From assembly GCA_010093995.1 (NCBI GenBank), contig ML992502.1, positions 2,172,541 through 2,236,540 on the forward strand: 64,000 nucleotides of DNA, read 5' to 3'. Of this stretch, positions 2,646 through 53,080 are shown in pieces. The stretch is from Elsinoe ampelina. Its lineage: Eukaryota. The first letter of the stretch is position 1; every line of letters begins with the position of its first letter. The notes below the pieces were generated by a model, which had not been told where the DNA came from, did no database searches, and saw only the letters and a list, made by a program, of their open reading frames with translations. The position numbers were made by a program, and so were the translations under genes.

Positions 2646-2753
2646 AATCTAGTTTAGTATCTAGTTTAGAATCTAGTTTAGAATCTAGTTTAGAATCTAG
2701 TTTAGCATCTAGTTTAGTATCTAGTTTAGAATCTAGTTTAGAATCTAGTTTAG
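2646..2753 (+). repeat. 9 x 12-bp tandem repeat (HATCTAGTTTAG) in the copia IN-RT linker
   Basis: Directly visible; in-frame unit, de-RIP reading approx. (N/H)PVQ. Confidence 0.9.
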
Positions 2754-23915: not shown

Positions 23916-24123
23916 AGTAGAGATTACAGGCGTTGGACAAGTATGCGTTTGCTCTTTGCTTCCTTTCGAGCTAGATACCCAAGCGCTTATGATGATATTT
24001 GTATCAATACCACACCTTGCACCACCATCCTCTTCCGGCCGTGCCTTTGCAACTGCATCGCCACCGCTCATCCCTCCTCCCACCCCTCCCACTTCACCCC
24101 CAACATCCACTCCTCCGCAGCCT

Positions 24124-25047
24124 CTACTGCTGGAAATTCATACTATACCCCCCACTCCTCTCATCCTTGACAAAATTAAAATTCTCCGTGCTCAACCCAA
24201 ACGGCTTCAGCAAACTATTCCCCAACCCCTTCAGCGTCCCCATCATCTCGGCCATCTCCCTCTGCCTCGCGTCGTCCAGCCTCGGCCCCAGCGCCGCCAA
24301 CGCACCCTGCACGGTGTTGCGATCTGTAGGGGACAAGCCGGGTGCGCGGAGCAGGAAGCGGTAGTCTTCTTCCGCGCCCTGCAGGTGTGACCAGGTGGCG
24401 AGTTCGGTGCGGGCTTTGGCGCGGCGGAGGAGGATTTTGGAGCGGAGTTTTTGGACTTCGGCGAGGGTGTGGCCGCTTTGGTGCAGCTTGTCGAGAGCTT
24501 GTTCGGTCTCGTCGGTGGCTTCTTCTGCTCGGCCGTCGACCTGGAGGTCCTTGTTGGTATTGCCTGTCGTGACATCTGCTTTCCCGTTCGTCCCGTGTCC
24601 TGCCTCCTTCTTGCTGCCCGCCGTTCGTGACTCAGTGACGTCTACCCCGTCCAGACTTCGTAGATTGTCCACCGCTTTGTCCGCGCTTTCGATGGCTTCC
24701 TTCCATTCTGCGAGCTTGATGTGGCAGGCCGCTATGTTACTCCGCAACACTGCGATCTCATAGTCGAGGTAGTTGGGTACTGAGGCGAGGGCGCGGTCAT
24801 AGGTAGAGATGGCTTGAGAGAAGGAAGAGCGAGCGAAAAGAGCGTTGCCTTCTGATTTGAGATCGGTGGAGGTGGAGAGGAGGGAGGCTTCTTCAGTGGG
24901 GGAGAAGCGGTCCTCGCGCGGGGTTGGTCGAGGGAGAGAGGGATTGGTGGCAGCGGTCGGGGGCTGAGAGGAGGGTGACGGTGAGGGAGAGCGAGAGCGG
25001 GTGGAGTGGAAGGTCGCTGTTGAGGACGCGGGCGACGAGGGGCGCAT
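24124..25047 (-). CDS. TPR protein, TTC1-like
   Basis: LKSEGNALF...AISTYDRAL...SNIAACHIKL TPRs; TTC1-type C-terminus LKGLGNSLLKPFGLSTENFNFVKD...GGYSMNF. Confidence 0.9.
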   Translation of the reverse strand: MRPSSPASSTATFHSTRSRSPSPSPSSQPPTAATNPSLPRPTPREDRFSPTEEASLLSTSTDLKSEGNALFARSSFSQAISTYDRALASVPNYLDYEIAVLRSNIAACHIKLAEWKEAIESADKAVDNLRSLDGVDVTESRTAGSKKEAGHGTNGKADVTTGNTNKDLQVDGRAEEATDETEQALDKLHQSGHTLAEVQKLRSKILLRRAKARTELATWSHLQGAEEDYRFLLRAPGLSPTDRNTVQGALAALGPRLDDARQREMAEMMGTLKGLGNSLLKPFGLSTENFNFVKDERSGGYSMNFQQ

Positions 25048-25251
25048 CTTGATTGTGGTGGGGGAGGTGGGTGGTGGGCAGTGAGGTCAGGCATATGGCG
25101 GAAGGAAATTTACGGTGAGCGAGATGTATGTATGTGAAGAAACTACAGTGAGCCAGATTTTGTTCAGCGAAGCCTCTCAGACCTGTCCTTGTGTTGTATC
25201 GGACATGCCAAAGTCTTCCTGACATCAATAGTGATTGATTCGGTATCAGCC

Positions 25252-31078: not shown

Positions 31079-32146
31079 TCACCACCCCACAGCGGCCTTG
31101 ATCGCTTGTGCCAATACCGGCGCCTCGGCAGCATGCGTCGCCGCATTTGGGTGGTAATCGCAACCAACATCACTCCCCTGCGATGGCCAGTCCACAAAGT
31201 ACGCCTTCGTTCCATTAAGCTTCGAGATGGCATCCTTGAGTGCGTTGACCTGTGTCGTATGCTGAGCGTCTTCGACACTCGGGTACCCGTCGCTCAACAT
31301 CGGCGAGCTGAGCAAGAAGAACGACGCCTTCTTATACTTTGCCGAGATCGTGCCGATGAAGTCCACGAATGCCTGAGTGTAAGTGGGGATGTCAAGGCGT
31401 TCGCGCACGTTGAGGTAGCCGAAGTCGTTGGTGCCGAGGTTGATGACGACCGCGGATGGGTTCCAGGAGGATGGGAAGGGGTAGTTGCCTGTGGCGTCGT
31501 TGGCGCCGTAGCGCGTCCAGAGCTCGGGCATGAGGGGCGACGTGTCGACTTGGCCTGAGCCATAGTTGCGGACGATGCCCTTCCCTGACCAGGCGATGAC
31601 GTGGTAGTCTGCCTTGAGGGAGGTGGCGGCGAGTGCGGCGTATGTGCGCGGGTTGTCGGTGACGGCTGCGTCGTTGACGCAGGGGAGAACGCCGTCCAGA
31701 CCGTAGCCTACGGTGATCGAGTCGCCGATGAATTCGATCTGACGTTTCTCGGCTGTAGTGGCGGAGGTGGGACCGTCGGCGGTGATGTCGCCTATGCTGA
31801 CGGTTCCAAGGGCTGTCTCTGAGCGGCGACGCAGGGTGACGGTATGCTCACCCTTGAGGAGTTGGGGTGTGGAGATGGACGTGGTGTTGACCTTGCGGAT
31901 GATGGTGGGGGCAGCATTGTCGACGAGCAGCTCGAAGCTGTTATCTCCGTTGATGGCGGTCAGACCGATGGTCGCCTTGGTGCCCTTGAACTTGAACTGT
32001 ACGCCGGTGCCAGGCCATGTGAGCTCCCTTGTCGCTGGGTTTACGCGGCCCAACCACCTGAACTTCTGAGCACGTTCATCAGTCTCGACAGGAACAGAGA
32101 GAGCGCTGGTGAAGAGCAGTGACGCCAGCAGAGATTGATAGAGCAT
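31079..32146 (-). CDS. Secreted SGNH/GDSL esterase, carbohydrate esterase family 2-like
   Basis: Signal peptide; N-terminal WPGTG beta domain; IEFIGDSITVGYG, AWSGKG, INLGTND, CDYHPN. Confidence 0.9.
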   Translation of the reverse strand: MLYQSLLASLLFTSALSVPVETDERAQKFRWLGRVNPATRELTWPGTGVQFKFKGTKATIGLTAINGDNSFELLVDNAAPTIIRKVNTTSISTPQLLKGEHTVTLRRRSETALGTVSIGDITADGPTSATTAEKRQIEFIGDSITVGYGLDGVLPCVNDAAVTDNPRTYAALAATSLKADYHVIAWSGKGIVRNYGSGQVDTSPLMPELWTRYGANDATGNYPFPSSWNPSAVVINLGTNDFGYLNVRERLDIPTYTQAFVDFIGTISAKYKKASFFLLSSPMLSDGYPSVEDAQHTTQVNALKDAISKLNGTKAYFVDWPSQGSDVGCDYHPNAATHAAEAPVLAQAIKAAVGW

Positions 32147-32452
32147 CTTGAAACAGCCGGTCGATTGGTAGATCAGGGAAAAGACTCAAGCATTTCCCAT
32201 CAAGGCTTCTTCTGGCCTACCTTTATACTTGTCTGCATGTGGCGGATCACGGTGCCGGTAGTCACGTAGCGTGTGAAACCTTCCATCCCCGCACCATGAC
32301 TTCCGCGCCGAATGGACGAACGGAAAGTCTTTATACATTTACCATAGTGGACGTGGGTGAAGGAAATTGAAGGTCCAGTTTTGCGGACCGCGAGATCGTC
32401 GTTTCTCCGTGCCCAAAGAGGAAGCCACGACAAGCTTTCGGCCCGGGGACTG

Positions 32453-32470: not shown

Positions 32471-33947
32471 TGTCAACCGAGGCATAAGCTGGAGCGCCAA
32501 GAAGACCCTGATTCAGTTCATCCCAAGGTTGAACTAAACACTATCTTACTATTTTACTAATCCATGATCAAATTGGATAATTATTGTCTTAATCTACTAC
32601 TATTAAGGAGTTCTTTTAATTTAGCTATCTTTTAGTATACTAGGTTAAGTATTTATATAGTTATAATCTATCTTATTTTAGTAGTTTAGGTAGTAATTAA
32701 TCCTTTTTCCTCCCCTACATAAGTTAATAGTTATAAGCCTAGTATAACTACCCCTATATAAGTACATTACTTAGTTGCTTTCCTACTCTATTTATTAGTT
32801 AATTCTCTACTATCTTGCTTTTTAAACATTAGAATCTATTAAGAACTGCCTTAACTATAACTATAGAATTTAGGTGTTAATAAAGGGATAAATAACTATA
32901 GATACTAACACCTTAATAGCTAGAACACCTATTATTCTTGCTATATTAGCTAAATAGGCTAGCTAGCTATATATTATTAAGATAAGAGCATTAAACACTA
33001 AGATATAGAACCTTATTAATCTCTAGAAGGCTAGTAAGCTAGAAGAGCTCTCTAAGCCTTAGAGGCTAGAGGTAGTAAATACTAACTTCTTAGTACTCTT
33101 CTAGATATATAAGGAGGAATAAGCATAATATAATAAATAGTATAAGGCCTTAGCTGATTTAGCTAGCCTTATTTAGTTATTAATTATACTATAAGTTCTT
33201 ACTATTATCTAACTAGAAGAGGATTCTTATTTATAGACTATCTTTAGAGCATTAAAGAACAGATTTGCTCTATCTAATATAGCTATTTAGCTCGAGGTTA
33301 AAGCACTTTAGAGGAAGTAGCTATCTAGCTCTTCCTTATAGAATATAGACTATTAGCTTTAGTAATAGAAAGAGGTTATAGATAAGGCTAGGAACTATAA
33401 TCTACTAGAAGCTTAAGGCTTAAGGCTATAGAGAGACTTCTTACTCTCTATCTTAAAGACTAAACTAGCATTTACTAATAAGTACCTTACTAATCTAGAT
33501 TTACTAACTCTACTAACTATACTTAAACCAATTACTAAGTTTAGACAGTTTTATAAACTCTATAAGCTATATAGCACTATAAAGGCTAGTAAGGGAGCTA
33601 CAGCCTTCTCTATAGCTACTAAGAATATTCTTTATAAGAAACCTAGTCTCTCTAGAGAGCCTAAATATATATACTAAGGCCGGTATAAGTAGATTAAGTA
33701 CTATTACTTAAATAAGCATCTAAGGCTAGAAGGATAGATACTAAACTAGTAGACTATAAAGGAAGTTAAACAAAGGCTAAATAATAAGACTCTTAAAAAG
33801 AGAATTAAGACTTCTATTACTAAGGAAGTATAACATTAGAAGGAGTTAACTCTACTAGTGTTAATTAATATAGCTATTACTATTAGATTATACTTAGTAT
33901 TTATTTTAGCTACTAGTAATATCTCTAACTTATAGATACTAGATTCT
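32471..33947 (+). mobile_element. Ty1/copia copy 2: 5' LTR (32471-32729), PBS and gag, interrupted in the protease codons by gypsy A
   Basis: LTR homologous to 4906-5164; 32731-33947 is collinear with 1-1217. Confidence 0.93.
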
Positions 33948-36900
33948 TATAACAAAGGTAGAATATTAGAGCTAGAAAGACAAGTATATAGGAGTAGAAT
34001 AGGTGTTATACTAGTGTACCCTCGATTGTTATAAGACTAATCTCTACTCTATCTATTCTATAGATAAGGAGTATTTTATTCTTCTACGGAGAATAGTATC
34101 TCTAGGGTAAGCTAGTATAGTATACTTACTATATTAGTTCTTATAATTATTCTTCCCCTTCGAGAGGCACACTCTTACGCCTATAAGCCTTAATAAAACC
34201 TAGAAAACCTAGTATAGGAGAAAACTAGGAAAGAGTGTCTCGCTAGTGTCTCTTAGGCATAGTATACTCTTTATATATATAGCGCGCCTATAATAGCCTA
34301 TAATATTCTTTATATACTAGATGTAGTAATAATAGTATAATTCTTTATATATAAAATATAGCGCTCTTATGTTATTATCTTTATATATAAGAATCTATCT
34401 ATTATTATATACTACTACTTATTATTCTCCGGATTAGTCTTAGCTTAGAGTTAGATATATATTCTTCTCTTCTTCTTCTCTTCTTCTTTTCTTCTTTATA
34501 ATACTTCCTTCGTATAAGTATTCTACTTAATACTAGCTCTATACTTATATAGGTCTAATACTATACTAGTAACCTATTTTAGGTACTATATAGTATAGAC
34601 TAGGTCTTACTAGCCTAAGGGCTAGTAGGGGAGGCTTAGCGTATATACTAAGCCTATACTACTATAGATCTAGCTATCGGGCTTATCTATTTAGTTGTTT
34701 GTTTACTAACCTAGTATAGCACCTACGTAGTAATTTTTTTTCTCTTTATTATTCTAGCTCTACGCTAGCTTACCTCCTATACGCTTATATACTTTAATAA
34801 CTATAGCCCCTAAAGTTCCTAAGGAGTAAGTATTATATATAGCACTTACGCTATACCGGCGCTAACCCTTTATAGACCTTATAAGAGCAATTTTACTAAC
34901 TAGGACTAGTACTCTATACTATACTTACGCTACGCTATTACTATTAATAAGTACCTTTAGCTTAAAGACAGTATACTCTCTATTAAGGATTCTCTCTACT
35001 AGATTACTAAGGCTAAGGCTACCCACTATAATTGTTATAGTTATAGTAATAAATACTACTACTAGGTATACTCTACACCTACACTATATCTACTTTATAC
35101 TAACCTTAGTAGCTTACTAAGCTTAACTCTAAGGATTAAGTTACTACTAAGAAGCTCTAGGACAAATACTTCGCTATATATATACTACTTTATAATAACG
35201 CTACTACTTCTAAAAAGGACATTATTCTCCTAAAGCGCTAGATTACTACCTATACTAACTATGTATATAAGAAGGCTAGCGCTAAGCGTATATAGAGTAA
35301 GTCTAATACTAAGGGCAAGGGCAAGGTAGTTGATAAGAGTAATAGTAATAGTATAACTTCTTTATGCTATAATAGCGCTATTACTACGCCCTCTACTCCT
35401 AAAGTTAATACTAAGTAGCTAGTAAAGGCGCTATGCCTAGGTATAATTAGTAACACTAGCTTTATACTTAAGGCTTTAGTTAATTATATAAGTCTAGAAG
35501 TGCGCCCCTATAATGCCTAAGCTATACTAACTTTCTTATAGATAGTTACTAAGAACAAGTAAGCCGCTACTATATAGGCGATTAATAATGCTATAAGGGC
35601 GCTAACTAGGTATATTAATAGTATTAAGGAGAATAATAAGAATAAGACTAAGGTAGATAATGTAGATAGTTAAGGTAGAGAGAGCTAGAGCACTATACCT
35701 ATACTATGCCCTCTTTACTTCGGTATAATTCTATAGTTTTCGCTACGCTAGCGTTCTCTCTATATAAGTTAATAATACTCTAAGCTAACCTAGCGCTACG
35801 CCTAGGTGCTCTTTACTTTAAAATTTGTACCTTTAACTTATTAATCCTAAGTATATCTAGAGTATTTAGCTAGTACTATACTTACGCTAAGCTACCTCGT
35901 ATTTATATAGTAATTCCTTAGCGTTTATAAGGTTTTTTACTAGCTCCTATATACTTTCTTCTATAGGGTAACTCTACTACTTTACTAGGTAGTATAGTGC
36001 CTTTAGAGTACTAGTATAGCTCTTACCGAGGATATATTTAATAATGTATTCTTCTTACTCTTCTACCTCTAGAGGTAGTAGGTATATACTCTTACTACGC
36101 CTATATAGCTCTAGTAGTGTAATATTAAAGACATTATAGATTAGCTTTATTTTGTCTAGTAAGTGTAGCTTATACACCTATATACTAATTTGTTATATAA
36201 TTATAAATAGGCTAATATACTTAGCTAATAGCTTATAGCTAGGTCTAGCGCTACGAAGGTTCTTAGTACTAAGTATAACCTTATTACTATTATAGAAGAC
36301 TTTTGCTTGTTAATCTCTATTATAGGCTAGTACTTAGTCTTTCTATACTTTATATAGGTGTTAGGTAAGCTCTACACGCGTTTTAGTAATAGATTATACT
36401 TAGTTATTAACTAATAGGTTATACGCTAGCGTATAGCTAGGTAGCGCTAGCGCCTTAATGTTATTAAGTAGGTATATCTCCTACGTAAATAAGAACTATA
36501 CTAGCGTAGCGTATAGTAACACTTAATACGTGTTATTATATACGAATTATGCCTACTTAACCTAGTATAGCTAGTCCGTCTAGTAATAGTTAATAAAGTA
36601 GCGTAGGTACTACTCTAGCGTCTAGTTTTGCCTTTCGGTTTAGCTATCTATCTATAGATAGAAACTAGTACTAAGCTTACATTACACCTTCTAGCGCTAG
36701 TATAGCACACTCTAGAATTTACTTATAAAGATAGACTCTCTATCTAAGACTAGTGTCTTTAGCGTTCCGAATAATATTATAATATCTATTTTAAATAGAT
36801 TAGTAAAGTTCCTTATATTAAGCTTAGTCGATATTAGTATATAGATACTAAACTTAGATAAGTAATAGATATATACAATAATCGTATCTATAACAATACT

Positions 36901-39900
36901 AGGCTAGAGCTCTACTAAAGGTAAGCTAGTAATAAAATTAAGCAACTAGTGTTATAAGGCCTTAAGTATAGGCAGGATTAGTAAGAGTTATAGAAGGCTA
37001 TAAGGCTTATACTATATTGCCTTATACCTTTAGTAGCTATTATAGCGCTTAATATACACTTTCGTAGCGACGGATATACCTAGCTACTAGTACTTCCTCC
37101 TTATATTAAGGTAGGTCTTTATATAGCTAAAGTAACTCCCTAAGGGATTATTATAATTATACTATATAAGCTTTACTCTTAAGGTAGTTTCTTCTAGGAT
37201 ATATACTCTATCTCCGTTCCGGAGTAAGCTATTACTAGATAGGCTCTACTTAGGGGTAGTACTATTACTAGTCGAGGTTCTCTCTTTTAGAAGTTTCTAT
37301 TTCTTACTATAAGTAAAGGTATCTCTTTACTATACTACGTAGATAAGGTCCCGGAGTAATATAGGAGTAGAAGAAATATATATAGTCTTATCCGCTAGTA
37401 CTTACGTAGTATAGAGGTATATAATCTACTAACTTTAGTCTAAAATTATAACGGGCTTCCTACTAGAGGTGTCCTAGAGTTACGTAGGTGTTATACTATC
37501 TTTATGCCCTTAGCTCTCTATTATTTTCTAGGCGAGTAGTAGTACGTCCTAGGATACTAGAGTAGGTATATATCGTCCTAATTTAACGTTACTAGTTAGG
37601 CTTAGAGGGAGATTTACGTAAGTACTCTCTAGGCACTACTCTTCTTACTCTAGAGGCTCTAACTCTTCTTAGTATAGCTATAGCGCTTCTAAGGTAATAG
37701 GTAGACTTATAGGTACTATTCTAGAGATATACTAGAATTATATAAGCGCGTTATATTAGGGAGTAGTTTAAGGTATATAAGCTATACTAGCTTTATTACT
37801 ATCTTCCTAGGCTCTACTAGCCTTAGGTTTCTTATCTATAATAGATATAGGTATAACTCCTTTGCTTCGTATTTATAACGCTTACTCTAAAAAGGGAACT
37901 AATATATAGCACTCTTCTTATATATCTTCTTTGTACTTATAGTAGTTAGGCCTACGTAATAGGCTATTAGCTAGGTTAGTCTTTCTACTATAGTGCTAGA
38001 TAACAATGTTAAACTACGCTAGTACCTTAGCGTAGTAGGCCTAGCGTTATAAAAGCTTCTTAGTAGTTAGGAAATACCTAAGGTTATTATAGTTAGAGAG
38101 AACTTTAATTAAGGTAGTAGCGCTAAGTAGGTACTAGTACTAGTACTACGCTACTTCTACGATAGTAAGAAGCTCTTTATTATAGGTAGTATAGTTTAGT
38201 TCTATACCTTATAGCTTCTAGGACTAGAACGCTATAGAGTACTAGTGTTATATAGGGGTATTATCTTTATTTTACTAGGAGATTACTCTAGAGAGTATAA
38301 AATCTAAAGTGTTAGTCTCGAGCTAGAGAGACTTACCTAATAAAAAGTAGTATAGTATAGGCACTTACGTAAAGGTAGCTTTAAGCCTATTAAAGGCCTA
38401 TACTATATTATTACTCTATAGAAATAGGCCTACTTACTTCCCTTAGACTAACTCTTATATAAGTATAGTTAGTAGTAGCGCTACGTAAGAGAAGCTCTTA
38501 ATAAATTAATAATAGAAATTAGTAAATCCGAGAAAGGTTTATAACTCCTTAAGGCTAGTAGAGGTAGGCTAGTTAGTAACGGCTTATACCTAGGGCTACT
38601 CTATTACGACACTATCGCTACTAACGACATAGCTTAGAAATACTACCTATATTACCTTAAAGATATACTTCTTTAGTTTTATATAGAGGCTATTCTTACG
38701 TAGGTAGTCTAGTACGCTTCTAATAGCCTAGCGATACTCTTACTTATCGCTAGTGTAGATTAGAATGTCGTCTAGGTATATAATATAGTAGTAGTCTACT
38801 AAGCTACTTAAGTACTAATATATATAAGTCTAGAACGTAGCTAGAGTATTAGTAAGGCTAAAAGGTATAATAGTATATTTAAAGTAGCTATAGTAATAGC
38901 GGAATACTATCTTCTATTTATTACTATACTAGATATATACTCTATAGTAGACATCTATAAGGTCTAGCTTACTAAATAAGTATACGCTCTTAATATAATT
39001 AAGCATCTCGGCAATTAGAGGCAAGAGGTAATAGTTCTTAATAGTAATATTGTTTAGCCTATAATAGTTAATATATAGACGTAGTAAACTATTCTTCTTT
39101 AGAACAAATAGGATAGAAGACTCTATAGGGCTAGTACTATACTAGAGTTAACTCGTTACTAAGCTATTATCTATATACTCTTAAAGTACCTAAAGCTCCT
39201 TTTTACTAAGGGGATAGATAGGTCCTTAGAGTAGCTATTTCTTCTCTTTAATATTAATAGAGTAAGTAAAATTATTACTTAGTAGTACTATTACTACGCT
39301 CTTATTAAAAACATCTATATAGTTATTAAGCTAGTATAGTAGAGTTAGGGCGCTAGGTTTGTCCCGGCATATATATACTAGATAGAGCTAGGCGTTAGGC
39401 TAATTTAGCTCCTAGGAGAAGGAGAGTATATCTAGAATTAACACCTATATAGCGCTAGTGTAATACCTCTATATACTAGCGCTCTACTAAATCTTAGAGT
39501 TGTAGGATAATAGCTATAGTAGGTCTAATATAAGATTATAACTAGTTACATTAACGCTTTTAAACTACTAGTGTAACGCCTACGTTATTTCTTCGCTGTC
39601 CTTAATAGTAAAGGCTAACTTAGTATATCTATAGGTAGTTAATTCGTATTTGTCTAAGCTATATACTTAGTATACTACTAGGGGGTCGATAGTAATATAA
39701 TAGTATATAGCAAAATACTAGCTAATAAAGTTACTATCGGCGCTACTATCTATTAGAGCTACCCCTTTAATAGGGCCTTTAGGTAGGTTAACTATAACAT
39801 CGGCGCAAATTTAGTATATATTCTATGTTATACTAGGGCTACTTAGGATTAGTAAACGTAAGGACACTATCTATTTCGAAGAGTTCTTCTAGAGATAGTT

Positions 39901-41239
39901 TAGCGCCTAATAGTCTAGGCTCTTATAGATGTTATAAGAGTAAGTAGCGCTAGGTTAGAGAGCTATAGGGGTAGCGTTAGCGCTACTCTACTAGTTCTTT
40001 TAGCCCTTATAGTTTTCGTTATAGTAAGGCCTTTTAGTAAAAGTATTAGTCTTCTCTCTAGTATTATACTTATACTACCCCTATATAGGGTTAGAGTAGC
40101 CCGGTAGGTTCTACTCTAAACAGGATAGATGTACTAGAAGTTCTGCCTTAATTAGGGGTAGGTTCCCCTAATAGAGTACTTCCGAGCGTAGCTCTAGCGT
40201 AGTATAGGTAATAAGCTATATATAGTAGACGTTGTTCGGGAGCGGCGCTATCTTAATATAGAACTTACAACTATTAAGAAACGTATAGAAATTAGTAATT
40301 AACTATTCTCTATACTAGCGTAACGTAAAGAACTTTACTATATAGCTATTACTATAGTTTTTAGAACTCTAGGCTTAGTCCTAAAGCTAGGACTATATTA
40401 GGCTCTATAAGGGTATAACGCTAGTGCTCTTAGTATATAAGTTCTAATTGTAGCTAAGCTAACCTTTTAAGTAGCTAGTAGCTATATAGCACTAAGTAAC
40501 TTCTTTAAAGTAGATATTCGGCACTATCTTAAAGATATTATTATATATATGTATAAATTCCTTAACTCTTGCTATAATAGTAGACTCTAAGGCCTCGGGG
40601 TAGTATAAGTTTAGTATATACTCTTTTACAATTTATAGGTTTATTAGGCAAATATCGTTAAGTTATATATTATTAAAACAACTACGTAGCACTAGCGCTA
40701 TAACTAGAAAGCGACTACTAAGTATATTCTTAAGCTAAGTAATATAAGTAAGAAGCGCTTTATATATAGTATTATTTCCCGTGTTAGCTATACTTCCTAT
40801 AGGAGCTATATTAGCGCAGTATAGTCTTAGCACTAGCTCTTCCCTAGCCTAGTAATCTTTAATAGGAGTTATCTCTAGAGTTATAGCTAATTCGGTAAAT
40901 GTCTTGCTAATAGCTAAGCTATTAGAGAGTTATCTATACTAGTACTACTCTAGTAGTAGTTAGTCGTTTCGCTAGCGCTAAGTATAGAGTGCTATCTTAT
41001 CTATATAGCTCTATCTAATAGAATATAAAAGAGATTAGAATTATAACAAAGATAGAATATTAAAGCTAGAAAGACAAGTGTATAGGAGTAGAATAGGTAT
41101 TATACTAGTATACCCTCGATTATTGTAAGACTAATCTCTACTCTATCTATTCTATAGGCGAGAAGTGTTTTATTTTTCTACGGAGAATAGTATCTCTAGA
41201 GTAAGCTAGCGTAGCGTACTTACTACGTTAGTCCTTATA
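33948..41239 (-). mobile_element. Ty3/gypsy chromovirus family A, copy A1 (RIP'd; 198-bp LTRs 33948-34145 and 41042-41239; flanks do not form a TSD)
   Basis: Reverse complement of 45787-53080; PPT complement at ~34150-34160; flanks ATTCT / CTTAC. Confidence 0.92.
34803..35673 (+). pseudogene. RIP'd antisense accessory gene of gypsy A (3 exons, ~257 aa, Cys-rich N-terminus, KGKGK, acidic tail)
   Basis: Exons 34803-34825, 34876-35065, 35113-35673; introns GTAAGT..GCTAAC..TAG and GTATAC..TACTAAC..TAG. Internal stops are all TAA/TAG, i.e. RIP-compatible. Confidence 0.7.
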
Positions 41240-44200
41240 CTTACTTACTTACTATAGCGAATAAAACCTCTATAGAGAAGAATAGGAAAGTTACTTAGGA
41301 ACTATAAAACGTTATAATTAAAATCGAAATATACATAGAAAAACGATTAATTAATATAGTAGATATATAGTATAATATAGTACTTAGTATAGACTAGCTT
41401 TAATAATATAATCTAGACATAGACTAGATTAAAGAAACACTTAAATTTCCTAAGTATAATTATAGGACGTAGGGAGTATAATTAGCTCTATAGATACTAA
41501 CTGCAAAGATAGTATAGGTATAACTAATAGTTAGAGCTATTACTAGCGTAAGTAATTAAGTACTTCTACTAGAATATAAAGACTTTAAGGATTTGTTCGA
41601 AGAAAGATAAGGTATTATAGCCTTACTCTAATATAAACTATAGAATTATAAAATACTCTTTAAAGAGAGTAAATCCCTAATATACTATTAAGGTCTTATA
41701 CTACTATTAAAACAAGAGAAGAACGTCCTTAAGAACTATATCGATAAGTACCTACTTAAAGGATTTATATAACTATTAAAATTACCTATTACGTACGGAG
41801 TGCTTTTTATACCTAAAAAGAATAGAATATTACAAATATATATTAATTACTAAAAACTTAATATACTTACTAGGAAGAATTACTATCCCCTACTAAGAAT
41901 TAACGAACTTTAAGACTAACTACTTAGAGCTAAATAGTTTACTATAATTAATATTAGAGATGCTTATTATTAAGTATAAATAAAGGAGAGCGAAGAGTAG
42001 AAAATAGCTTTTAGAACGTAATAGAGTCTATATAAGTACCTCGTTATACTCTTTAGGTTAACTAATACTCCTATAACCTTCTAAGAGTTAATTAATAATA
42101 CTCTATAAGAATACCTTAACAACTTTATCTTAGTATATTTAGACAATATTATTATCTTCTTAAAGATATATAACAAATATATAAGACATATTTATAAGGT
42201 GCTATAGAAACTAAAAGAAAAAGACTTACTAGTAAAGCTCTTTAAGTATAAGTTTTATAAACATAAGATACAATTTCTAAGCTATGTTATATCTACTAAT
42301 AGCATTAAACCTAATCCGAAGAAGATTAAGTTAGTAAATAACTAGCTAGAACCTACTATAGTTAAGGAGGTTTAAGCACTACTAGGATTCTTTAACTACT
42401 ATTATAAGTTTGTTAAAGGATTCTCTAAGGTAGCTATACTAATATCTAACTTTATAAAGAAAGAAACTAGCTTTGTCTTTAACAAAAAGTATAGGTAGGC
42501 CTTTAAGGAGCTAAAGCTTAGGCTTATAATAGTACCTATCTTAGCACTCTTCGACCTAGACTAGTAAGCGCTACTAGAAATAGATGCCTTAGACTTTATA
42601 ATAGAAGTATATCTAGCATAGAAGAACGTAGAAGAATAATACTACCTAATTATATACTACTTACGAAAAATAACTAGACCTAAACTTAACTACGATATAT
42701 ACGATAAGGAGTTACTTATAATTATAGAAGTATTCTGCGAGTAGAGAGTATATCTAGAAGAAACAACCTTACCTATATAAGTTTATACTAACTATAAGAA
42801 CCTATTATATTAGACAACAACTAAGGTTCTTAATAGATAATAGGTTTAATAGTTAGAAACACTTATAAGCTATAACTTTTAGATCTACTATATTAAGGGA
42901 TTAAAGAATAGTAAAGTAGATGCTCTTAGCTAATAACTAAATTACTTAAAGAATATAACAATAATAAAGGCCTCTATACTAAAGTAGTAAGATAGCGCTC
43001 TAGTCTATAAGTACCCGAAGGTAAAGCAGTTATATAGCCTTACCTAGGAGCTTACGTAAGAACAGAAGAAAGAAGTTATTTAAATATACTATAACGACCT
43101 AATAGTGGAATATAGCAGAATCAATAAGACTATTAAACTTATTATATAAAACTACCTATAGAAAGAACTCTAAAACAATATTAAGATATATATCGCTATA
43201 TATAATATATACTATAAGTCTAAGCACTTACGACATAAGCTATATAGGCTATTATAACTCTTACTACTACTAGATAAACTATAGTAATTAGTTATAATAG
43301 ACTTTATAGGACCTCTACTACTATTAGAAGAACCTCTTATAGGTGTAAAGTATAATAGTATCCTAGTCCTAGTAGATAGATTTATAAAATATTACTACTT
43401 TATACTATATAAGATAATAGCAACTACCAAGGATATAGCCTTTACCTTTCTCTAAACAATTGTTTCGCGATATAGAGTACTATAAGACTTAATAACTAAT
43501 AGGGATAAGCTATTTACATTATAATTCTAGTAATTATTTATAGACCTACTAGGAGTTAAATATAAGCTATTAACCTTCTTTTATTTATAAATAGATAGAT
43601 AAACTAAATAGGCAAATTAAGTACTAGAGTAGTACCTATACTACTACCTAAACTATAAGTAAGACTTATAGGTAATACTATTACTACTCGCGGAGCTCGC
43701 TATTAATAATAGAAAGTTAGCTAATAGAATTTTACTATTTTACACGAACTATAGAATATACTTAGATCTATACTATAACACACTCGGAATTAAGCTAATA
43801 TCTAAGGATACTAATATACTAGTAGCTAACATTAAGAAACTATATAACTAGCTATACTACGATATAGTATTTATATTATAAAGAATAGTAGAGTTTACTA
43901 ACTAGAAGAGAATTACAGGACTAATTCTATAGGAGGGGGAGAAAGTTTACCTCCTTAGTAGAAATATTAAAACGAAATAACTAAGTAAGAAACTTAACTA
44001 CACTAAACTAGGACTCTTTAAGATCCTAGAAAAGAAAAACAAGAACGTATATAAACTAGAACTACTAAGACATATAAGGATCTATCTAGTCTTTTATATA
44101 TTACTACTAGAGAAAGTACTATAGAATACTATACCTAGACCTATTAAACTAGATAAAGAAACATAGGAGCTATAGTATAAGATTAAAAGAGTTTTACATT

Positions 44201-45487
44201 ATAAATCTATAAGGGGAAAGCGTTACTATCTTATCCACTAGAAAGAACATTAGTATAGTAAGGTAATATAGGAACTAGAGAAACACCTTACCTCGTAAGT
44301 AATTCTAGATTACTAGACTAAAAACCTATCCTAAGTAAACTAACTAGGTAGGCCTAACGCTACTAATACTAAACAAAAATAAGAATACCTAAGAAAGACT
44401 ACTTAGCTAATAGAAGTACTCTAATTGTTGCTAAATAAGGAACTCTAATCGGAGTTAGATATAAATAATTACTAGTCCTATAGTAGGATAGGATCTACTA
44501 ATAATAGTATTTCCTCCTACTCTAAGATTTAAATATAAGTCTCCTCTAGAGAGATTACTTTCTCTACCTTGTCCTTTAACTTTTATATCTCTTTATATAG
44601 GCAAAGCTTATTGCCTATAGCTCTTTAATAAGCCTCTTTTACCTTTTTATAAGCTTCTTTAGCTTTCTTTTTAGCGGCCTTAGCTATAACTAATTCCTTT
44701 TATAAATAAATATACTTAGACTAGAGACGCTACTATTCTAATTTTATTACTTAAATATTATAACTTAAGTAGTTACTTACGATATACTAGCTATAAATAC
44801 CCGACCGAATATAGACTTTATAGTCTAGCCCTTTTAACTTATAATAAGAGTAAGCTTATAGCATATTAGTTCTAAATAACTTAATAAACTCTAAGAGGTT
44901 CTTTTATATAGATATACTAGATTTACTATACCTTTAACGACTAGGAGGCATATTTAGTATATAGCGTAGAAGAATAAGAAAGAATACTTACTTATTAGAA
45001 CAACTCGATTAAAAGAGGAGAGTAATATTATAAACTAGTAGAACAGCTAGAGCGTAGAGACGTTAGGACTAATTAAACTACTAAGGTTATTACGTAACTT
45101 AGCTCGACATTTACTTAATTCTCTATTGTCTCTAGCGGCTCTACCCTAGAGACTATAGAGCGTATAGGTTACTAGTGGATATATACTCTATATTACTCCT
45201 AACTCTCGCTATAGAGTATATAGAGTATATAGAGTATATAGTAAAGAATACATATATATAGAAATAGTCCTTACCTTATATAAGTACTATAGTTAACCTT
45301 GTCTAGATAGCGAACACTAGTATTACTAAGGCTAGCCTTTATAATACTATCTAATTATACTTTATTATCTATAAGACATACCTTCTCTAACTCTTACCTT
45401 AGTACTATACTACTATAGAAGTAGAACTACCTCGTTCTTAGCTTAGCTTAGACTACTAACGTAGGCTATATTAGATAGTTCGTAATA
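41240..45487 (+). mobile_element. Ty3/gypsy chromovirus family B, 5'-truncated (part of PR, RT, RH, IN, chromodomain, PPT, 462-bp 3' LTR 45026-45487)
   Basis: Degenerate YPLPRIDEL (~41881), KTAFRT, YLDDI (~42135), chromodomain ~44170-44290, PPT 45011-45022, LTR ends tattataaac...gttcgtaata. Confidence 0.9.
44403..44951 (-). pseudogene. RIP'd antisense accessory gene of gypsy B: Zn(II)2Cys6-like motif followed by a coiled coil (~182 aa; stop uncertain)
   Basis: Intact ATG at 44951; TAY codons (RIP'd TGY) at codons 34, 37, 44, 53, 56 and 64; E/K/A-rich helical segment follows. Confidence 0.65.
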
Positions 45488-45786
45488 CTACGCTATACCT
45501 CCTTTACTTCGGTATAATTCTATAGTTTTTACTACGCCGGCGTTCTTTCTATATAAGCTAATAATACCTCGAGCTAGTCTAGTACTACGCCTAGGTACTC
45601 TTTACTTTAAAATTTATACCTTTAACTTATTAATCCTAAGTATGTCTAGAGTGTTTAGCTAGTACTATACTTACGCTAAGCTACCTTATATTTATATAGT
45701 AATTCCTTAGCGTTTATAAGGTTTTTTACTAGCTCCTATATACTTTCTTCTATAGAGTAACTCTACTACTTTACTAGGTAGTGTAG

Positions 45787-48700
45787 TATAAGGACTAACG
45801 TAGTAAGTACGCTATACTAGCTTACCCTAGAGATACTATTCTCCGTAGAAGAATAAAACACTCCTCGCCTATAGAATAGATAGAGTAGAGATTAGTCTTA
45901 CGATAATTAAGAGTATACTAGTATAACACCTATTCTACTCCTATATACTTATCTTCCTAGCTCTAATATTCTACCTTTGTTATAATTCTAATCTCTCTTA
46001 TATCCTATCGGATAGAGCTATATAGACAAGATAGCACTCTATACTTAGCGCTAGCGAAACGACTAACTACTACTAGAGTAGCACTAGTATAGATAACTCT
46101 CTAATAGCTTAGCTATTAGTAAGACATTTACCGAATTAGCTATAACTCTAGAGATAACTTCTATTAAAGATCGCTAGGCTAGGGAAGAGCTAGCGCTAAG
46201 ACTATACTACGCTAATATAGCTCCTATAGAAAGTATAGCCGACACGGGAAATAATGCTATATATAAAGTACTTCTTGCTTATATTACTTAGCTTAAGAAT
46301 ATACTTAGTAGTTGCTTTCTAGTTATAGCGCTAGTACTACGTAGTTGTTTTAATAATATATAACTTAACGATATTTGTCTAATAAACCTACAAATTATAA
46401 GAGAGTATATACTAAACTTATACTACCTCGAGGCCTTAGAGTCTACTATTATAGCAAGAGTTAAGGAATTTATATATATATATAATAACATCTTTAAGAT
46501 AGTACTAAATATCTACTTTAAAGAAGTTACTTAGTGCTATATAGCTACTAGCTACTTAAAAGGTTAGCTTAGCTATAATTAAAACTCGTATACTAAGAGC
46601 GCTAGCGTTATACCCTTATAAAGCCTAATATAGTTCTAGCTTTAGGACTAAGCCTAGAGTCCTAAAAACTATAGTAATAGCTACGTAGTAAAGTTCTTTA
46701 CATCGCGCTAGTGTAGAGAATAGTTAATTACTAATTTCTATACGTTCCTTAATAGTTATAAGTTCTATATTAAGATAGTGCCGCTCCTAGATAATGTCTA
46801 CTATATATAGCTTATTACCTATACTACGCCGGAGCTACGCTTAGAAGTACTCTATTAAGGGAACCTACCTCTAATTAAGGTAGAACTTCTAGTATATCTA
46901 TTCTATTTAGAGTAGAACCTACCGGGCTACTTTAACTCTATATAGGAGTAGTATAAGTATAATGCCGGAGAGAAGACTAATACTTTTACTAAAAGGCCTT
47001 ACTATAATAAAGACTATAAGGGCTAAAAGGACTAGTAGAGTAGCGCTAACGCTACCTCTATAGCTCCCCGACCTAGTGCTACTTACTCTTATAATATCTA
47101 TAAGAGCCTAGACTATTAGGTGCTAAACTATCTCTAGAAGGACTTTTCGAAACGGATAGTGTTCTTACGTTTACTAATCCTAAGTAACTCTAGCGCGATA
47201 TAGGATATATACTAAATTTGTACTAACGTTATAGTTAACCTACCTAAAGGCCCTATCGAAGGGGTAGCTCTAATAGATAGTAGCGCCGATAGTAACTTTA
47301 TTAGCTAGCATTTTGCTATATGCTATTATATCGCTATCGACCCTCTAGTAGTATACTAAGTACGTAGCTTAGACAAATACGAATTAACTACCTATAGATA
47401 TATCGAGTTAGTCTTTACTATTAAGGATAGTAAAGAAACAACGTAGGCGTTACGCTAGCGGTTTAAAAGTGTTAATATAACTAGTTATAATCTTATATTA
47501 GGCCTACTATAGCTATTGTCCTATAACTCTAAGATTTAGTAGAGCGCTAGTATATAGAGGCATTATACTAGCGCTATATAGGTGTTAATCCTAGATGTAC
47601 TCTTCTTCTCCTAGGAGCTAAATTAGTCTAACGCTTAGCTCTATCTAGTATATATATACTAGGACAAACCCGGCGCCCTAACTCTACTATACTAGCTTAA
47701 TAACTATATAGATGTTTTTAATAAGAGTATAGTAATAGTACTACTAGGTAATAATTTTACTTACTCTATTAATATTAAAGAGAGAGAATAGCTACCCTAG
47801 GGACCTATCTACTCCCTTAGTAAGAAGGAGCTTTAGGTACTTTAAAAGTATATAGATAATAGCTTAGTAATAGGTTAACTCTAGTATAGTACTAGCTCTA
47901 CGAGGTCTTCTATTCTATTTATTCTAAAGAAGGATAGTTCGCTATGCCTATATATTAACTATTATAGGCTAAATAATGTTACTATTAAGAACTATTACCT
48001 CTTACCTCTAATTGCTAAGATGCTTAATTATATTAAGAATATATACTTATTTAGTAAGCTAGACCTTATAGATGTCTACTATAGGGTATATATCTAGTAT
48101 AGCGATAAATAGAAGATAGTATTCTATTATTACTATAGCTACTTTAAATATACTATTATACCTTTTAGCCTTACTAATGCCCTAGCTACGTTCTAGACTT
48201 ATATATATTAGTACTTAAGTAGCTTAGTAGACTACTACTATATTATATACCTAGATAATATTCTAATCTACGCTAGTAACAAGTAAGAGTATTACTAGGC
48301 TATTAGAAGCGTACTAAACTACCTACGTAAGAATAGCCTCTATATAAAACTAAAGAAGTATATCTTCGAGGTAATATAGGTAGTATTCCTAAGCTACGTT
48401 ATTAGTAGTAATAGCGTTATAATAGAGTAGCTCTAGGTATAAGCCGTCGCTAACTAGCCTACCTCTACTAGCCTTAAGGAGTTATAAACCTTTCTTGGAT
48501 TTGCTAATTTCTACTATTAATTTATTAAGAGCTTCTCCTATGTAGTACTACTACTAACTATACTTACGCGAGAGTTAGTCTAAGAGAAGTAAGTAGGCCT
48601 ATTTCTATAGAGTAACGATATAGTATAAGCCTTCGATAGGCTTAAAGCTACCTTTATATAAGCGCCTATACTATGCTACTTTTTATTAAGTAAGCCTCTC

Positions 48701-51700
48701 TAGCTCGAGACTAACGCTTTAGATTTTATACTTTCTAGAGTAATCTCCTAGTAAAATAAAGATAATACTCCTACGTAACACTAGTACTCTATAGCGTTCT
48801 AGTCCTAGAAGCTATAAGGTATAGAACTAAACTATACTACCTATAACAAAGAGCTTCTCGCTATTATAGAAGTAATATAGTACTAGCGCTAGTACTTACT
48901 TAGTACTACTACTCTAATTAAAGTCCTCTTTAACTATAATAACCTTAAGTATTTCCTAACTACTAAGAAGCTTTTATAATACTAGGCCTACTACGCTAAG
49001 GTACTAGCATAGTTTAATATTATTATCTAGTACTATAGTAGAAAGACTAACCTAGCTAATAGCCTATTATGTAGGCCTAACTACTATAAGCATAAAGAAG
49101 ATATATAGGAAGAGTACTATATATTAGTTTCTCTCTTAAAGTAAGTATTATAAACGTAAAGTAAAGAAGTTATACCTATATCTATTATAGACAAGGAACC
49201 TAAGGCTAGTAAGGCCCGAGAAGATAGTAATAAAGCTAGTATAGCTTATATGCCTTAAACTACTCTCTAACGTAATACGCTTATATAATTCTAGCGTACC
49301 TCTAGAATAGCGCCTATAAGTCTACCTATTACCTTAGAAGCGCTATAGCTATACTAAGAAGAGTTAGAGCCTCTAGAGTAAGAAGAGTAGTACTTAGAAA
49401 GCACTTACGTAAATCTCTCTCTAAGCCTAACTAATAATGTTAAATTAGAACAATATATATCTACTTTAGTATCCTAGGACATGCTACTACTTACCTAGGA
49501 AATAATAGAGAGCTAAGGGCATAAAGATAATATAACGCCTATATAACTCCGGGATACCTTTAGTAGAAAGCCCGCTATAATTTTAGACTAGAGTTAGTAG
49601 ATTATATACCTCTATACTATATAAGTACTAGCGGATAAGACTATATATATCTCTTCTACTCCTATATTACTCCGGGACCTTATCTACGTAATATAGTAAA
49701 GAGATACTTTTACTTATAGTAAGAAATAGAAACTTCTAAAAGAGAAAACTTTAACTAGTAATAGTACTACCTCTAAGTAGAGCCTATCTAGTAATAGCTT
49801 ACTCTAGAATAGAGATAGAGTATATATCCTAGAAGAAACTACCTTAAGAGTAGAGCTTATATAGTATAATTATAATAACTCCTTAGGGAGTTACTTTAGC
49901 TATATAAAGACTTACTTTAATATAAGGAGGAAGTACTAGTAGCTAGGTATATCTATCGCTACGAAAGTGTATATTAAGCGCTATAATAGCTACTAAAGGC
50001 ATAAGGCAATATAGTATAAGCCTTATAGCCTCCTATAACTCTTACTAATTCTACTTATACTTAAGGCCTTATAATACTAGTCGCTCGATTTTATTACTAG
50101 CTTACCCTTAGTAGAGCTTTAGCCTAGTATTATTATAGATACAATTATTATATATGTCTATTACTTATCTAAGTTTAGTATCTATACGCCGACGTTAACT
50201 AAGCTTCATACTAGGGACTTTACTAATCTATTTAAAATAGATATTATAACGTTATTTAGAACGCTAAAGATACTAGTCTTAGATAGAGAGTCTATCTTTA
50301 TAAGCAAATTCTAAAGTGCGCTATACTAGCGCTAGAAGGCGTAATATAAGCTTAGTACTATTTTCTATCTATAGATAGATAGCTAAACTAAAAGGCAAAA
50401 CTAGACGCTAGAGTAGTACCTACGCTACTTTATCGACTATTACTAGATAGACTAGCTATACTAGGTTAAGTAGGCGCAATTCGTATATAATAATACATAT
50501 TAAGTATTACTATATACTACGCTAGTGTAGTTCTTATTTACGTAGGAGATATACCTACCTAATAATATTAAGGCGCTAGTGCTACCTAGCTATACGCTAG
50601 TATATAACCTATTAGTTAATAACTAAGTATAATCTATTACCGAAACGCGCGTAGAGCTTGCCCGACACCTACGTAAAGTATAGAAAGACTAAGCGCTAGC
50701 CTATAATAGAGGTTAATAAGTAAAAGTCTTTTATAATAGCGACAAGGTTATACTTAGCACTAAGAACCTTTGTAGCGCTAGACCTAGCTATAAGCTATTA
50801 GCTAAGTATATTAGCCCGTTTATAATTGTATAACGAATTAGTATATAGGTGTATAAGCTACGCTTACTAGATAAAATAAAGCTAATCTATAACGTCTTTA
50901 ACGTTACGCTACTAGAGCTATATAGGCGTAGTAAGGGTATACACCTACTACCCCTAGAGGTAGAAGAGTAGGAAAAATATATTATTAAATATATTTTTAG
51001 TAAGAGCTATACTAGTACCTCGAAGGCGCTATACTACCTAGTAAAGTAGTAGAGTTACTCTATAGAAGAAAGTATATAGAAGCTAGTAAAAAACCTTATA
51101 AATGCTAAGGAATTGCTATACAAATATAAGGTAGCTTAGTATAAGTATAGCGCTAGCTAAACACTCTAGACACACTTAGGATTAATAAGTTAAAGGCACA
51201 AATTTTAAAGTAAAGAGTACCTAGGCGTAGCGCTAGATTAGCTCGGAGTATTATTAGCTTATATAGGGAGAACGCTAGCGTAGCAAAAACTATAGAATTA
51301 TACTAAAGCGAAAAGGGTATAGCATAGGTATAGCACTCTAGCTCTCTCTACCTTAACTATCTATATTATCTACTTTAGTCTTATTCTTATTATTCTCCTT
51401 AACACTATTAATATGCCTAGTTAGTGCCCTTATAGCATTATTAATCGCCTACGTAGTAGTAACTTACTTATTCTTAGTAACTACCTATAAGAAAGTTAGT
51501 ATAGCTTAGGCGTTATAGAGGCGCACTTCTAGACTTATATAATTAACTAAAGTCTTAAGCATAAAGCTAGTATTACTAATTATACCTAGGCGTAGCGCCT
51601 TTACTAGCTGCTTAGTATTAACTTTAGGGGCGGAGAGCGTAGTAATAGCGCTATTATAGCGTAAAGAAGTTATACTATTACTATTACTCTTATTAACTAC

Positions 51701-53080
51701 CTTACTCTTACCTTTAGCGTTAGACTTGCTCTATATATGCTTAGCGCTAGTCTTCTCGTATATATAGTTAGTATAGGTAGTAATCTAGCGCTTTAGAAGA
51801 ATAATGTCCTTCTTAGAAGTAATAGCGTCGTTATAGAGTAGTATATATATAGTAAAGTATTTGTCCTAGAGCTTCTTAGTAGTAACTTAATCCTTAGAGT
51901 TAAGCTTAGTAGGCTACTAAAGTTAGTATAAAGTAGACATAGCGTAGGCGTAGAGTATACCTAGTAGTAGTGTTTATTACTATAACTATAACAATTATAG
52001 TAGGTAGCCTTAGCCTTAGTAATCTAGTAGAGAGGATCTTTAATAGGGAGTATACTATCTTTAAGCTAGAGGTACTTATTAATAGCAATAGCGTAGCGTA
52101 AGCATAGTATAGAGTACTAGTCCTAGTTAGTAAAATTGCTCTTATAAGGTCTATAAAGAGTTAGCGCCGGCGTAGCGTAAGTACTATATATAATACTTAC
52201 TCCTTAGGAACTTTAGAGGCTATAGTTGTTAAAGTATATAAGCGTATAGAAGGTAAGCTAGCGTAGAGCTAGAATAATAAAGAGAAAAAAAAATTTACTA
52301 TATAGGTACTACGCTAGGTTAGTAAATAAACAACTAAATAGATAAGCCCGATAGCTAGATCTATAGTAGCGTAGGCTTAGTATATACACTAAGTCTCCCC
52401 TACTAGCCCTTAGGCTAGTAAGACCTAGTCTATACTATATAGCACCTAAAATAGGTTACTAGTATAGTGTTAGACCTACGTAAGTATAGAGCTAGCGTTA
52501 AGTAGAATACTTATATAAAGGAAGTATTATAAAGGAGAAAAGAAGAAGAGAAGGAAAAGAGAAAGATATATATCTAGCTCTAAGCTAAGACTAATCCGGA
52601 GAATAATAGGTAGTAGTATATAATAATAAATAGATTCTTATATATAAAAATAACAACGTAAGAGCGCTATATTCTATATATAAAGAATTATACTATTATT
52701 ACTATATCTAGTATACAAAGAATGTTATAGGCTACTATAGGTGTACTATATATACGAAAAGTACGCTACGCCTAAGAGGCGCTAGTAAGATGCTCTTTCC
52801 TAGTTTTCTCCTATACTAGGTTTTCTAGGTTTTATTAAGGCTTATAGACGTAAGAGCGTGCCTCTTAAAGGGGAAGAATAATTATAAGAACTAACGTAGT
52901 AAGTACGCTACGCTAGCTTACTCTAGAGATACTATTCTCTATAGAAGAATAAAACACTCCTTACCTATAGAATAGATAGAGTAGAGATTAGTCTTATAAT
53001 AATCGAGAGTATACTAGTATAACGCCTATTCTACTTCTATACACTTGTCTTCCTAGCTCTAATATTCTACCTTCGTTATA
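45787..53080 (+). mobile_element. Gypsy family A copy A3, full length (LTRs 45787-45984 and 52883-53080; TSD TGTAG/TATAG)
   Basis: Degenerate ALxDSGA (~47265), YLDDILIY (~48247), LETDAS (~48704), integrase, chromodomain ~50970-51120; PPT at ~52867-52878; 5-bp TSD with one RIP-type change. Confidence 0.93.
51353..52223 (-). pseudogene. Second copy of the gypsy A antisense intron-containing gene
   Basis: Same 871-bp span and splice signals as 34803-35673; retains TGC at the first Cys of the CxxC. Confidence 0.7.

Follow-up and report, generated by a model that had tools for sequence, protein, structure and literature searches.

Element A1 and its place in family A

The window analysed here is a 64,000-nt stretch of contig ML992502.1 of Elsinoe ampelina, a Dothideomycete plant pathogen whose repeat-rich regions are degraded by repeat-induced point mutation (RIP). 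It contains several copies of a gypsy-like retrotransposon, family A, and a first-pass annotation had read in one of them, A1, an additional gene between pol and the 3' long terminal repeat (LTR): an intron-containing gene for a Cys-rich protein, on the strand opposite gag-pol. We examined this spacer together with its counterparts in other copies and in related elements. Element A1 and its relative A3 comprise the following features:

33948-41243, pol on the minus strand: element A1, a 7.3-kb unit found by self-comparison
33947-34149, minus strand: 3' LTR of A1, a direct repeat with the 5' LTR
34150..34161, minus strand: polypurine tract adjoining the 3' LTR, read directly (plus strand, TTCTTCCCCTTC)
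34150..35895: spacer from the chromodomain to the 3' LTR, 1746 nt, bounded by the LTR repeats and the end of the Pfam chromodomain
35896..36048, minus strand: chromodomain at the end of pol (Pfam Chromo, E=0.042), following SH3_Tf2-1 (E=9e-9)
36049..41040, minus strand: gag-pol of A1, RIP-damaged, with stops making up 9% of codons
41041-41243, minus strand: 5' LTR of A1, a direct repeat with the 3' LTR
45787-53080, inverted: copy A3, 91.4% identical to A1 over 7296 nt

The two LTRs of A1 are 89% identical over 203 nt in the self-comparison, and their termini were set by comparison with A3, whose ends adjoin a 5-bp target duplication. When all six frames were searched against Pfam with stops read as X, the domains RVT_1, RT_RNaseH, RT_RNaseH_2 and SH3_Tf2-1 were all found in the minus-strand frame from 41241 and in no other (E-values of 1.8e-9 for RVT_1, 9e-12 for RT_RNaseH_2 and 6e-7 for SH3_Tf2-1). 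The element thus has reverse transcriptase, RNase H and integrase in the Ty3/gypsy order in a single frame, followed by a chromodomain whose match, obtained from a RIP-damaged reading, is weak (14.2 bits against a Pfam cut-off of 25.1). The nearest intact proteins are fungal chromoviral polyproteins, all with PF00385, that share 38-42% identity with the mutated query. In addition, LTR pairs are present in both A1 and A3, a purine run adjoins the 3' LTR, and A3 is flanked by a 5-bp duplication. These domains and repeats identify family A as a Ty3/gypsy chromovirus, ~7.3 kb long, with LTRs of 203 bp and inactivated by RIP. From the general biology of LTR elements, the polypurine tract at 34150..34161 would be the plus-strand primer. 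An attempt to name the family through its pol relatives was abandoned: the best matches, at 38-42% identity, are unnamed or generic Tf2-like proteins, and the label Boty is absent among them.

Copy A3 lies inside a third copy, A2, between the two halves of a 5-bp target duplication (TGTAG/TATAG), and because of this duplication of its target it represents a true separate integration. No target duplication was found around A1 (33943-33947 and 41240-41244), whose left flank is a copia fragment and whose right flank is a different gypsy fragment, element X. Since the duplication is missing and the flanks come from different elements, they are probably recombinant, produced by recombination or deletion between repeats.

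Layout of the spacer

The annotation had noted ~1.7 kb of extra DNA after the chromodomain, in agreement with the measured 1746 nt. For comparison, only ~300 nt separate the integrase SH3 domain from the 3' LTR in element B, another gypsy element of the window. The spacer and the matching part of A3 contain the following features:

34462..34497, plus strand: pyrimidine (CT) tract, 36 nt, 306 nt upstream of the proposed start
34803..34825, plus strand: proposed exon 1, opening with ATA (perhaps once ATG); A at -3, G at +4
34826..34875, plus strand: proposed intron 1, 50 nt (GTAAGT..GCTAAC..TAG)
34876..35065, plus strand: proposed exon 2, rich in Tyr/His/Cys-ambiguous codons
35066..35109, plus strand: proposed intron 2, 44 nt (GTATAC..TACTAAC..TAG)
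35110..35673, plus strand: exon 3, 187 codons and TAA, the best-supported former coding segment
35674..35895: gap of 222 nt between the convergent reading frames, with no coding signal in any frame
51353..52223, minus strand: A3 twin of the three-exon structure, with the same layout and identical splice-like motifs

The proposed arrangement of three exons in one frame, interrupted by two introns of about 50 nt, holds to the base: with gaps of 50 and 44 nt removed, the exons join into a single 259-codon frame. The annotation had also placed the same structure in A3, where both the layout and the splice-like signals match; conservation of these signals between copies had been set beforehand as a check, and the motifs are identical in A1 and A3. 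Two of the three family A copies in the window therefore carry the unit, whereas the third, A2, is truncated, its likeness to A1 ending at the equivalent of 35704, at a junction with element X.

Two upstream signals had been noted in the annotation. The CT-rich tract was confirmed and is distinctive, being one of only three purine or pyrimidine runs of at least 30 nt in the 64 kb; the others are its twin, retained in A3 (52531-52566), and a run in a GC-rich gene. It could be a promoter CT-box. On the sense strand it reads as 36 nt of unbroken purines, ~310 nt inward of the 3' LTR, and it could serve as a second plus-strand priming site instead of, or besides, a promoter element. The TATA-like run was rejected as a promoter sign, since RIP-mutated DNA here has TATATA at a density of 7.7 per kb.

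RIP damage

Substitutions between A1 and A3 comprise 620 transitions and 3 transversions, and the single internal indel between them, of 2 nt at ~34734, falls in the spacer upstream of exon 1. The GC content of family A is 31-33%, compared with 50-60% in the neighbouring genes. Such a pattern of substitutions is characteristic of RIP. CpG sites account for about half of the transitions (149/293 C/T and 156/327 G/A, or 305/620); their position at CpG rather than CpA may reflect saturation of CpA in both copies or a different mutation preference.

The joined antisense frame contains 16 stops in A1 (12 TAG, 4 TAA and no TGA) and 15 in A3, and one in-frame TAG of A1 reads CAG in A3. Both readable copies of the antisense gene are dead, through C-to-T and G-to-A mutation. 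In DNA mutated in this way almost any frame can be read as open, because each TAA or TAG may be a former CAA, CAG or TGG. We therefore relied on statistics that do not depend on reading stops away.

Coding signal on the strand opposite pol

Two kinds of statistics were applied: (i) codon models, of which the first was trained on the mutated pol frame of A1 and the second, independent one only on elements B, X and copia, all six frames being scored; and (ii) the TA phase, a model-free count of TA dinucleotides by the codon position of their T, given below in the order 3/1/2. In mutated pol genes, TA is over-represented with its T in the third codon position (390/293/292 in A1 and 390/248/274 in B), a bias that is less clear in X (223/169/233). 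Applied to the RIP-mutated part of the window, the A1-trained model marks the known sense strands of A, B, X and copia. As a control on the independent model, the true pol frame of A1 outscored the five other frames in 25 of 29 windows, no window exceeding 15.1.

Exon 3 stands out by all these measures. With the A1-trained model it scores +24.5, its mirror frame on the opposite strand +6.0, and the other frames -19 or lower. The independent model gives +19.4 for exon 3 and +23.8 for its A3 twin, with the other non-mirror frames at -21 or lower. The TA phase of exon 3 is 72/21/27 in the proposed frame (p=4e-9), whereas the 5' part of the spacer, the gap beyond exon 3 (p=0.49) and the LTR are uniform (p=0.49-0.68).

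A strand-symmetric statistic leaves room for the view that the spacer never held an antisense gene, the signal being a product of composition and RIP or the mirror of a frame on the sense strand, for example an extension of pol or a third ORF there. TA periodicity is strand-symmetric, the minus-strand continuation of the pol frame is as stop-poor as the plus frame (11/188 each), and the A1-trained model gives the mirror its positive score. This view is nevertheless highly improbable. The independent model separates the two strands clearly, with -12.4 for the mirror frame; none of 2000 dinucleotide shuffles reaches the score of exon 3 (the best of six frames in this null averaging -7.1, with a standard deviation of 4.1). 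The same shuffle test gave 0/500 for each of four pol windows, compared with 18/500 and 45/500 for two stretches of the spacer. With the A1-trained model the exon 3 window reaches 25.4 (28.7 in A3), level with real pol windows, whereas antisense windows of B, X and copia do not exceed 18.6. The minus-strand reading itself is a Leu/Ile/Ser-rich string without a Pfam match. It is thus firm that exon 3 is what remains of a reading frame antisense to pol.

Upstream of exon 3 the signal continues in a different frame. For exon 2, the A1-trained model gives +7.6 in the proposed frame, against -9.6 and -11.1, and the TA phase is 22/17/4 in that frame (p=0.0024). In sliding windows the same model favours plus frame mod 2 as far as ~34960; between 35050 and 35640 it favours plus frame mod 1, and it picks out nothing coherent in 34150-34690 or beyond 35680. 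The richest TA phase changes from coordinate mod 1 up to 35050 to coordinate mod 0 from 35065 to ~35640; the switch at 35050-35065 thus falls at proposed intron 2. These observations support exon 2 as a second coding-like segment, upstream and in a different frame, with the change of frame coinciding with a complete intron signal. Exon 1 is too short for testing, and its proposed frame is weakly the best in its 60-nt block.

A stop-free candidate in this region, an 84-codon open reading frame (ORF) at 34866-35120 on the plus strand with a twin in A3 at 51906-52160 on the minus strand, was rejected as a by-product of the TA phase; its codon scores are -9.6 and -3.6. Each of the two covers parts of exon 2 and all of intron 2, reaches 11 nt into exon 3, and is shifted by one base from the frame of exon 2.

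The encoded protein

Differences between the two copies allow some of the RIP-ambiguous codons to be read. Codon 24, TAY in A1, is TGC (Cys) in A3; codons 58, 68 and 239 specify His (CAC or CAT) in one of the copies; and the two TGC triplets in exon 3 of A1 both read CGC (Arg) in A3. The Cys-rich reading, which the annotation had obtained by undoing presumed RIP changes, is not supported by this comparison, since the four resolvable Tyr codons yield one Cys and three His, and two apparent Cys are Arg. Resolution of the TAY codons to residues other than Cys had been named in advance as a point against that reading, and they go mostly to His.

The suggested zinc-binding, Zn2Cys6-like fold also finds no backing. 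Pfam searches with the exons returned no family at E≤10, and the six-Cys pattern CX2CX6CX5-12CX2CX6-8C does not fit the sequence. A likeness to Zn2Cys6 binuclear cluster proteins is limited to one CxxC-like spacing, present if Tyr codons are read as former Cys, whereas a Pfam match is absent and three of the four resolvable codons are His. What stands of the annotated gene is a former coding unit opposite gag-pol in the spacer, with plausible introns, its richness in Cys being unsupported. An excess of Tyr as the sign of a former Cys/His cluster was considered and rejected: exon 2 has 12/63, compared with 10% in pol (p=0.02), yet pol windows reach 16/63.

RIP converts codons for Glu, Asp, Gly and Ala into codons for Lys, Asn, Ser and Thr, and because of these changes the apparent wealth of Lys and Asn in the reading is not a reliable guide to the original protein. 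For the exon 3 reading as it stands, an AlphaFold2 model had a mean pLDDT (predicted local distance difference test) of 38.3 and was unusable. The antisense protein shows no likeness to the rest of the 64-kb window. An origin as an inverted copy of gag or pol was rejected, the best match to 120 chromoviral polyproteins having E=0.13.

Occurrence in other DNA and in related elements

DNA contigs from the same organism, 1838 in number, and 231 from a second organism cover all 30 bins of 33947-36400; the latter set is more diverged, transversions included. Contig depth is unusable as a measure of copy number. Two of the second organism's contigs span intron 2, and none of the contigs from either source skips one of the introns.

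Among metagenomes, an alignment scan with exon 3 gave 595 pattern matches, none of which was confirmed. A scan with the reverse transcriptase yielded 62 related gypsy loci, mostly RIP-like (GC 0.16-0.45) and themselves degraded; an intact antisense ORF of at least 120 aa in the right place was found in none of the 62. The end of pol and the LTRs could be placed in four of these loci, and the distance from the last pol match to the 3' LTR is ~2.0-2.6 kb in each:

L005, 14745-16906: spacer from pol to the 3' LTR
L020, 8625-10676: spacer from pol to the 3' LTR
L021, 12766-15395: spacer from pol to the 3' LTR
L051, 5159-7310: spacer from pol to the 3' LTR

Since all four placeable loci have spacers of this length, long spacers are common in the related gypsy group. 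The spacers of L005 and L020 are 85% alike and contain a stop-free antisense stretch of ~110 codons rich in Glu and in Pro/Thr/Ser. In both loci the top-scoring window of the codon model is on the antisense strand, directly beyond pol; it was discounted, being low-complexity sequence rich in Glu, Pro and Thr.

Exon structure and the case for an antisense transcription unit

Family A, when alive, probably carried a second transcription unit on the opposite strand of its 1.75-kb spacer. That the unit was carried as part of the element is supported by the coding statistics, by the phase change and by A3, a copy with its own target duplication. The annotation's description of the unit as element-encoded agrees with the presence of the same structure in this separately integrated copy.

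How much of the unit lies upstream of exon 3 depends on the introns. Both gaps have a GT donor, a CTAAC-type branch site and a YAG acceptor, and their removal keeps the frame, as far as sequence signals go. Several observations speak against a spliced unit of this kind. With the independent codon model, exon 2 scores +1.7, which is not significant, as 494 of 2000 shuffles do as well. RIP-mutated DNA is well supplied with intron-like motifs: 72.4 kb of such DNA, both strands counted, contain 10 strict motifs, of which two are intron 1 and its A3 twin, and 35 relaxed ones. The change of frame could equally well be due to a frameshift of one or two bases as to intron 2. The frame of exon 2 is fairly open upstream through 'intron 1', where ATA codons are possible former starts, and its weak TA phase reaches back to ~34720; because frame and phase extend upstream, the gene may have begun without an intron 1. 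Low-complexity sequence can mislead the codon model, as it does in L005 and L020. Neither exon 2 nor exon 3 has a match in any of the 62 metagenome loci (best tblastn E=0.16), and a HMMER profile built from the two exon 3 readings found no protein at E≤0.001 among 1.84 billion representatives. Finally, only two copies are readable, and both are dead. The blank homology searches are weak evidence, because the query is heavily mutated.

Some of these observations would follow if only exon 3 were a real frame remnant, the intron signals were chance motifs of TA-rich DNA and the 5' model were wrong; the frame change at ~35060 would then be a frameshift or the true start region. The weak exon 2 score, the frequency of intron-like motifs and the alternative ATA codons in the exon 2 frame suit this explanation, and so do 9 stops in the 29 codons of plus frame mod 1 just upstream of 35110, which mark a boundary of unspecified kind. 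We consider it unlikely, since the exon 2 TA phase is significant, the A1-trained model favours the proposed exon 2 frame, and both introns have complete donor, branch and acceptor signals where the frames change. In particular, the 44-nt gap belongs to the residue class that puts exon 2 exactly in register with exon 3. Taken one by one, exons 1 and 2 and the introns are plausible but weak; the 5' end formed by exon 1 and intron 1 is putative only, and the three-exon model as a whole is plausible but unproven.

A further possibility is that the unit is a passenger, that is, a piece of a host gene with its introns, which a forerunner of family A captured the wrong way round and which had no role in the element. 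Introns are a usual feature of host genes, the protein has no gag/pol similarity (best E=0.13, as above), and transduction has been discussed as an origin of such regions in plant elements (PMC11963269). We regard capture as quite improbable: no host homologue was found in the window or among the 1.84 billion proteins, the unit looks complete in its start context, stop and spacing from pol, its position is typical of antisense accessory ORFs, and it is kept by copies in two organisms.

For an antisense unit belonging to the element, the following course of expression can be proposed. Transcription would start in the spacer downstream of the CT tract, from the unit's own promoter, run toward pol in convergent orientation and end ~220 nt short of the pol stop. 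The message would lose two short spliceosomal introns and encode a protein of ~258 residues. Being antisense to the genomic RNA, the introns would be unspliceable there and would thus be copied by reverse transcription into each new insertion; A3, a separate integration with the same introns, fits such survival through retrotransposition. By analogy, the protein may have been an element-specific regulator acting on the nucleic acid or chromatin of the element. Because every copy seen is dead, the unit has no present function in this genome, and the finding has no bearing on virulence.

The codon model trained on other mutated elements, together with the TA phase, recovered the strand, the frame and an exon boundary from two ruined copies, and this combination could be used to screen RIP-mutated repeat families generally.

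Neighbouring genes and other repeats

The window consists of a gene island at ~5-32.5 kb, with GC of 0.48-0.64, between AT-rich flanks with GC of 0.26-0.35. Features outside family A include:

31079-32185: host ORF for a CE2/GDSL esterase, matching an NCBI protein labelled Elsinoe ampelina at 100% identity across 89% of its length
41244-45487: element X, a 5'-truncated gypsy fragment
56583-62774: element B, an LTR gypsy element of 6.2 kb with 204-bp LTRs, different from family A

Within the gene island, 8068-25086 contains a calcineurin-like phosphoesterase and a UPF3 homologue, a large leucine-rich-repeat protein split over two ORFs (15297-20450, minus strand), and two long ORFs without a Pfam match (11838-14831 and 20991-23915). 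A copia-type element with RVT_2 and a retroviral SH3 domain occupies 1-4900. Two repeat pairs, 4906-5162 with 32471-32727 (76% identical) and 1-1217 with 32731-33947 (91%), suggest a second copia copy whose LTR starts at the far edge of the gene island and which is cut off by A1. The region 45488-64000 holds nested insertions, with copy A2 split by A3 and by element B.

Comparison with known antisense genes of retroelements

Antisense accessory genes of LTR retrotransposons are on record from a handful of plant families and one fungal family. The fungal gene, brtn of Boty, was reportedly first described by Zhao et al. in 2011 (Virology 417:248). Antisense ORFs between pol and the 3' LTR have been described in maize Grande, rice RIRE2, Retand (with a TRP28 domain) and PvRetro13, and in fungal Boty (PMC7264820, PMC11963269, PMC8365987, PMC4227169). 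They lack an established function, and a nuclear or DNA-binding regulatory role has been proposed for some (PMC7264820, PMC11963269). Boty of Botrytis and Sclerotinia carries brtn on the opposite strand in this position (PMC7264820, PMC8365987), and a relative of BRTN has been reported in a Monilinia transcript (PMC5987419). In the literature on intron-bearing antisense genes of fungal LTR elements and on repeats of Elsinoe ampelina, we found nothing closer to family A.

Comparison of family A with these systems reveals both shared and distinct features. Like Boty, family A is a fungal Ty3/gypsy element with a chromodomain, and its additional gene, antisense to pol, likewise lies between pol and the 3' LTR. 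It differs in that its host class is the Dothideomycetes and all its copies seen are RIP-dead; moreover, the protein-wide profile search with the RIP-damaged exon 3 query returned nothing at its threshold, although this involved no direct comparison with BRTN.

The plant antisense ORFs of the aORF-3R type (Grande ORF23, RIRE2 and Retand) share the position and orientation and the long region between pol and the 3' LTR; they are present in the copies of a family, and in family A two of the three copies in the window have the unit. In family A the coding signal is confined to 34876-35673, within the spacer, and its plus-strand orientation follows from the independent scores of the frame and its mirror and from the shuffles. 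The plant elements described there are non-chromoviruses with spacers of 2.9-6.6 kb, whereas family A is a fungal chromovirus with a spacer of 1.75 kb. The word 'intron' is absent from the text of PMC7264820 and PMC11963269. Unlike the Retand ORF, the family A exons contain neither TRP28 nor any other Pfam domain.

HBZ of human T-cell leukaemia virus type 1 (HTLV-1) is a spliced antisense retroviral gene that is transcribed from the 3' LTR and encodes a basic leucine zipper (bZIP) protein. It resembles the family A unit in being an antisense unit of a retroelement with a spliced message, which in family A is suggested by splice signals, and in the regulatory role proposed for it. HBZ starts in the 3' LTR, whereas the start in family A is placed inside the spacer, and the family A protein has no bZIP or other domain.

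On these sequence comparisons, the family A gene is most likely a further, unrelated-looking case of the known antisense accessory kind, in a Dothideomycete element. A more far-reaching proposal, rather doubtful at present, is that the antisense gene of family A encoded a regulator specific to its lineage, with introns and without kinship to brtn or any other known protein. In that event, genes of this accessory kind would have arisen repeatedly in fungal chromoviruses, and short antisense introns would be the hallmark of a unit with its own promoter that passes through reverse transcription. The related RIP-mutated elements of other fungi, with spacers of ~2 kb between pol and the 3' LTR, suggest that the habit may be widespread and masked by RIP. 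Beside Boty, a second, apparently unrelated fungal case would point to recurrence of such genes in fungi.

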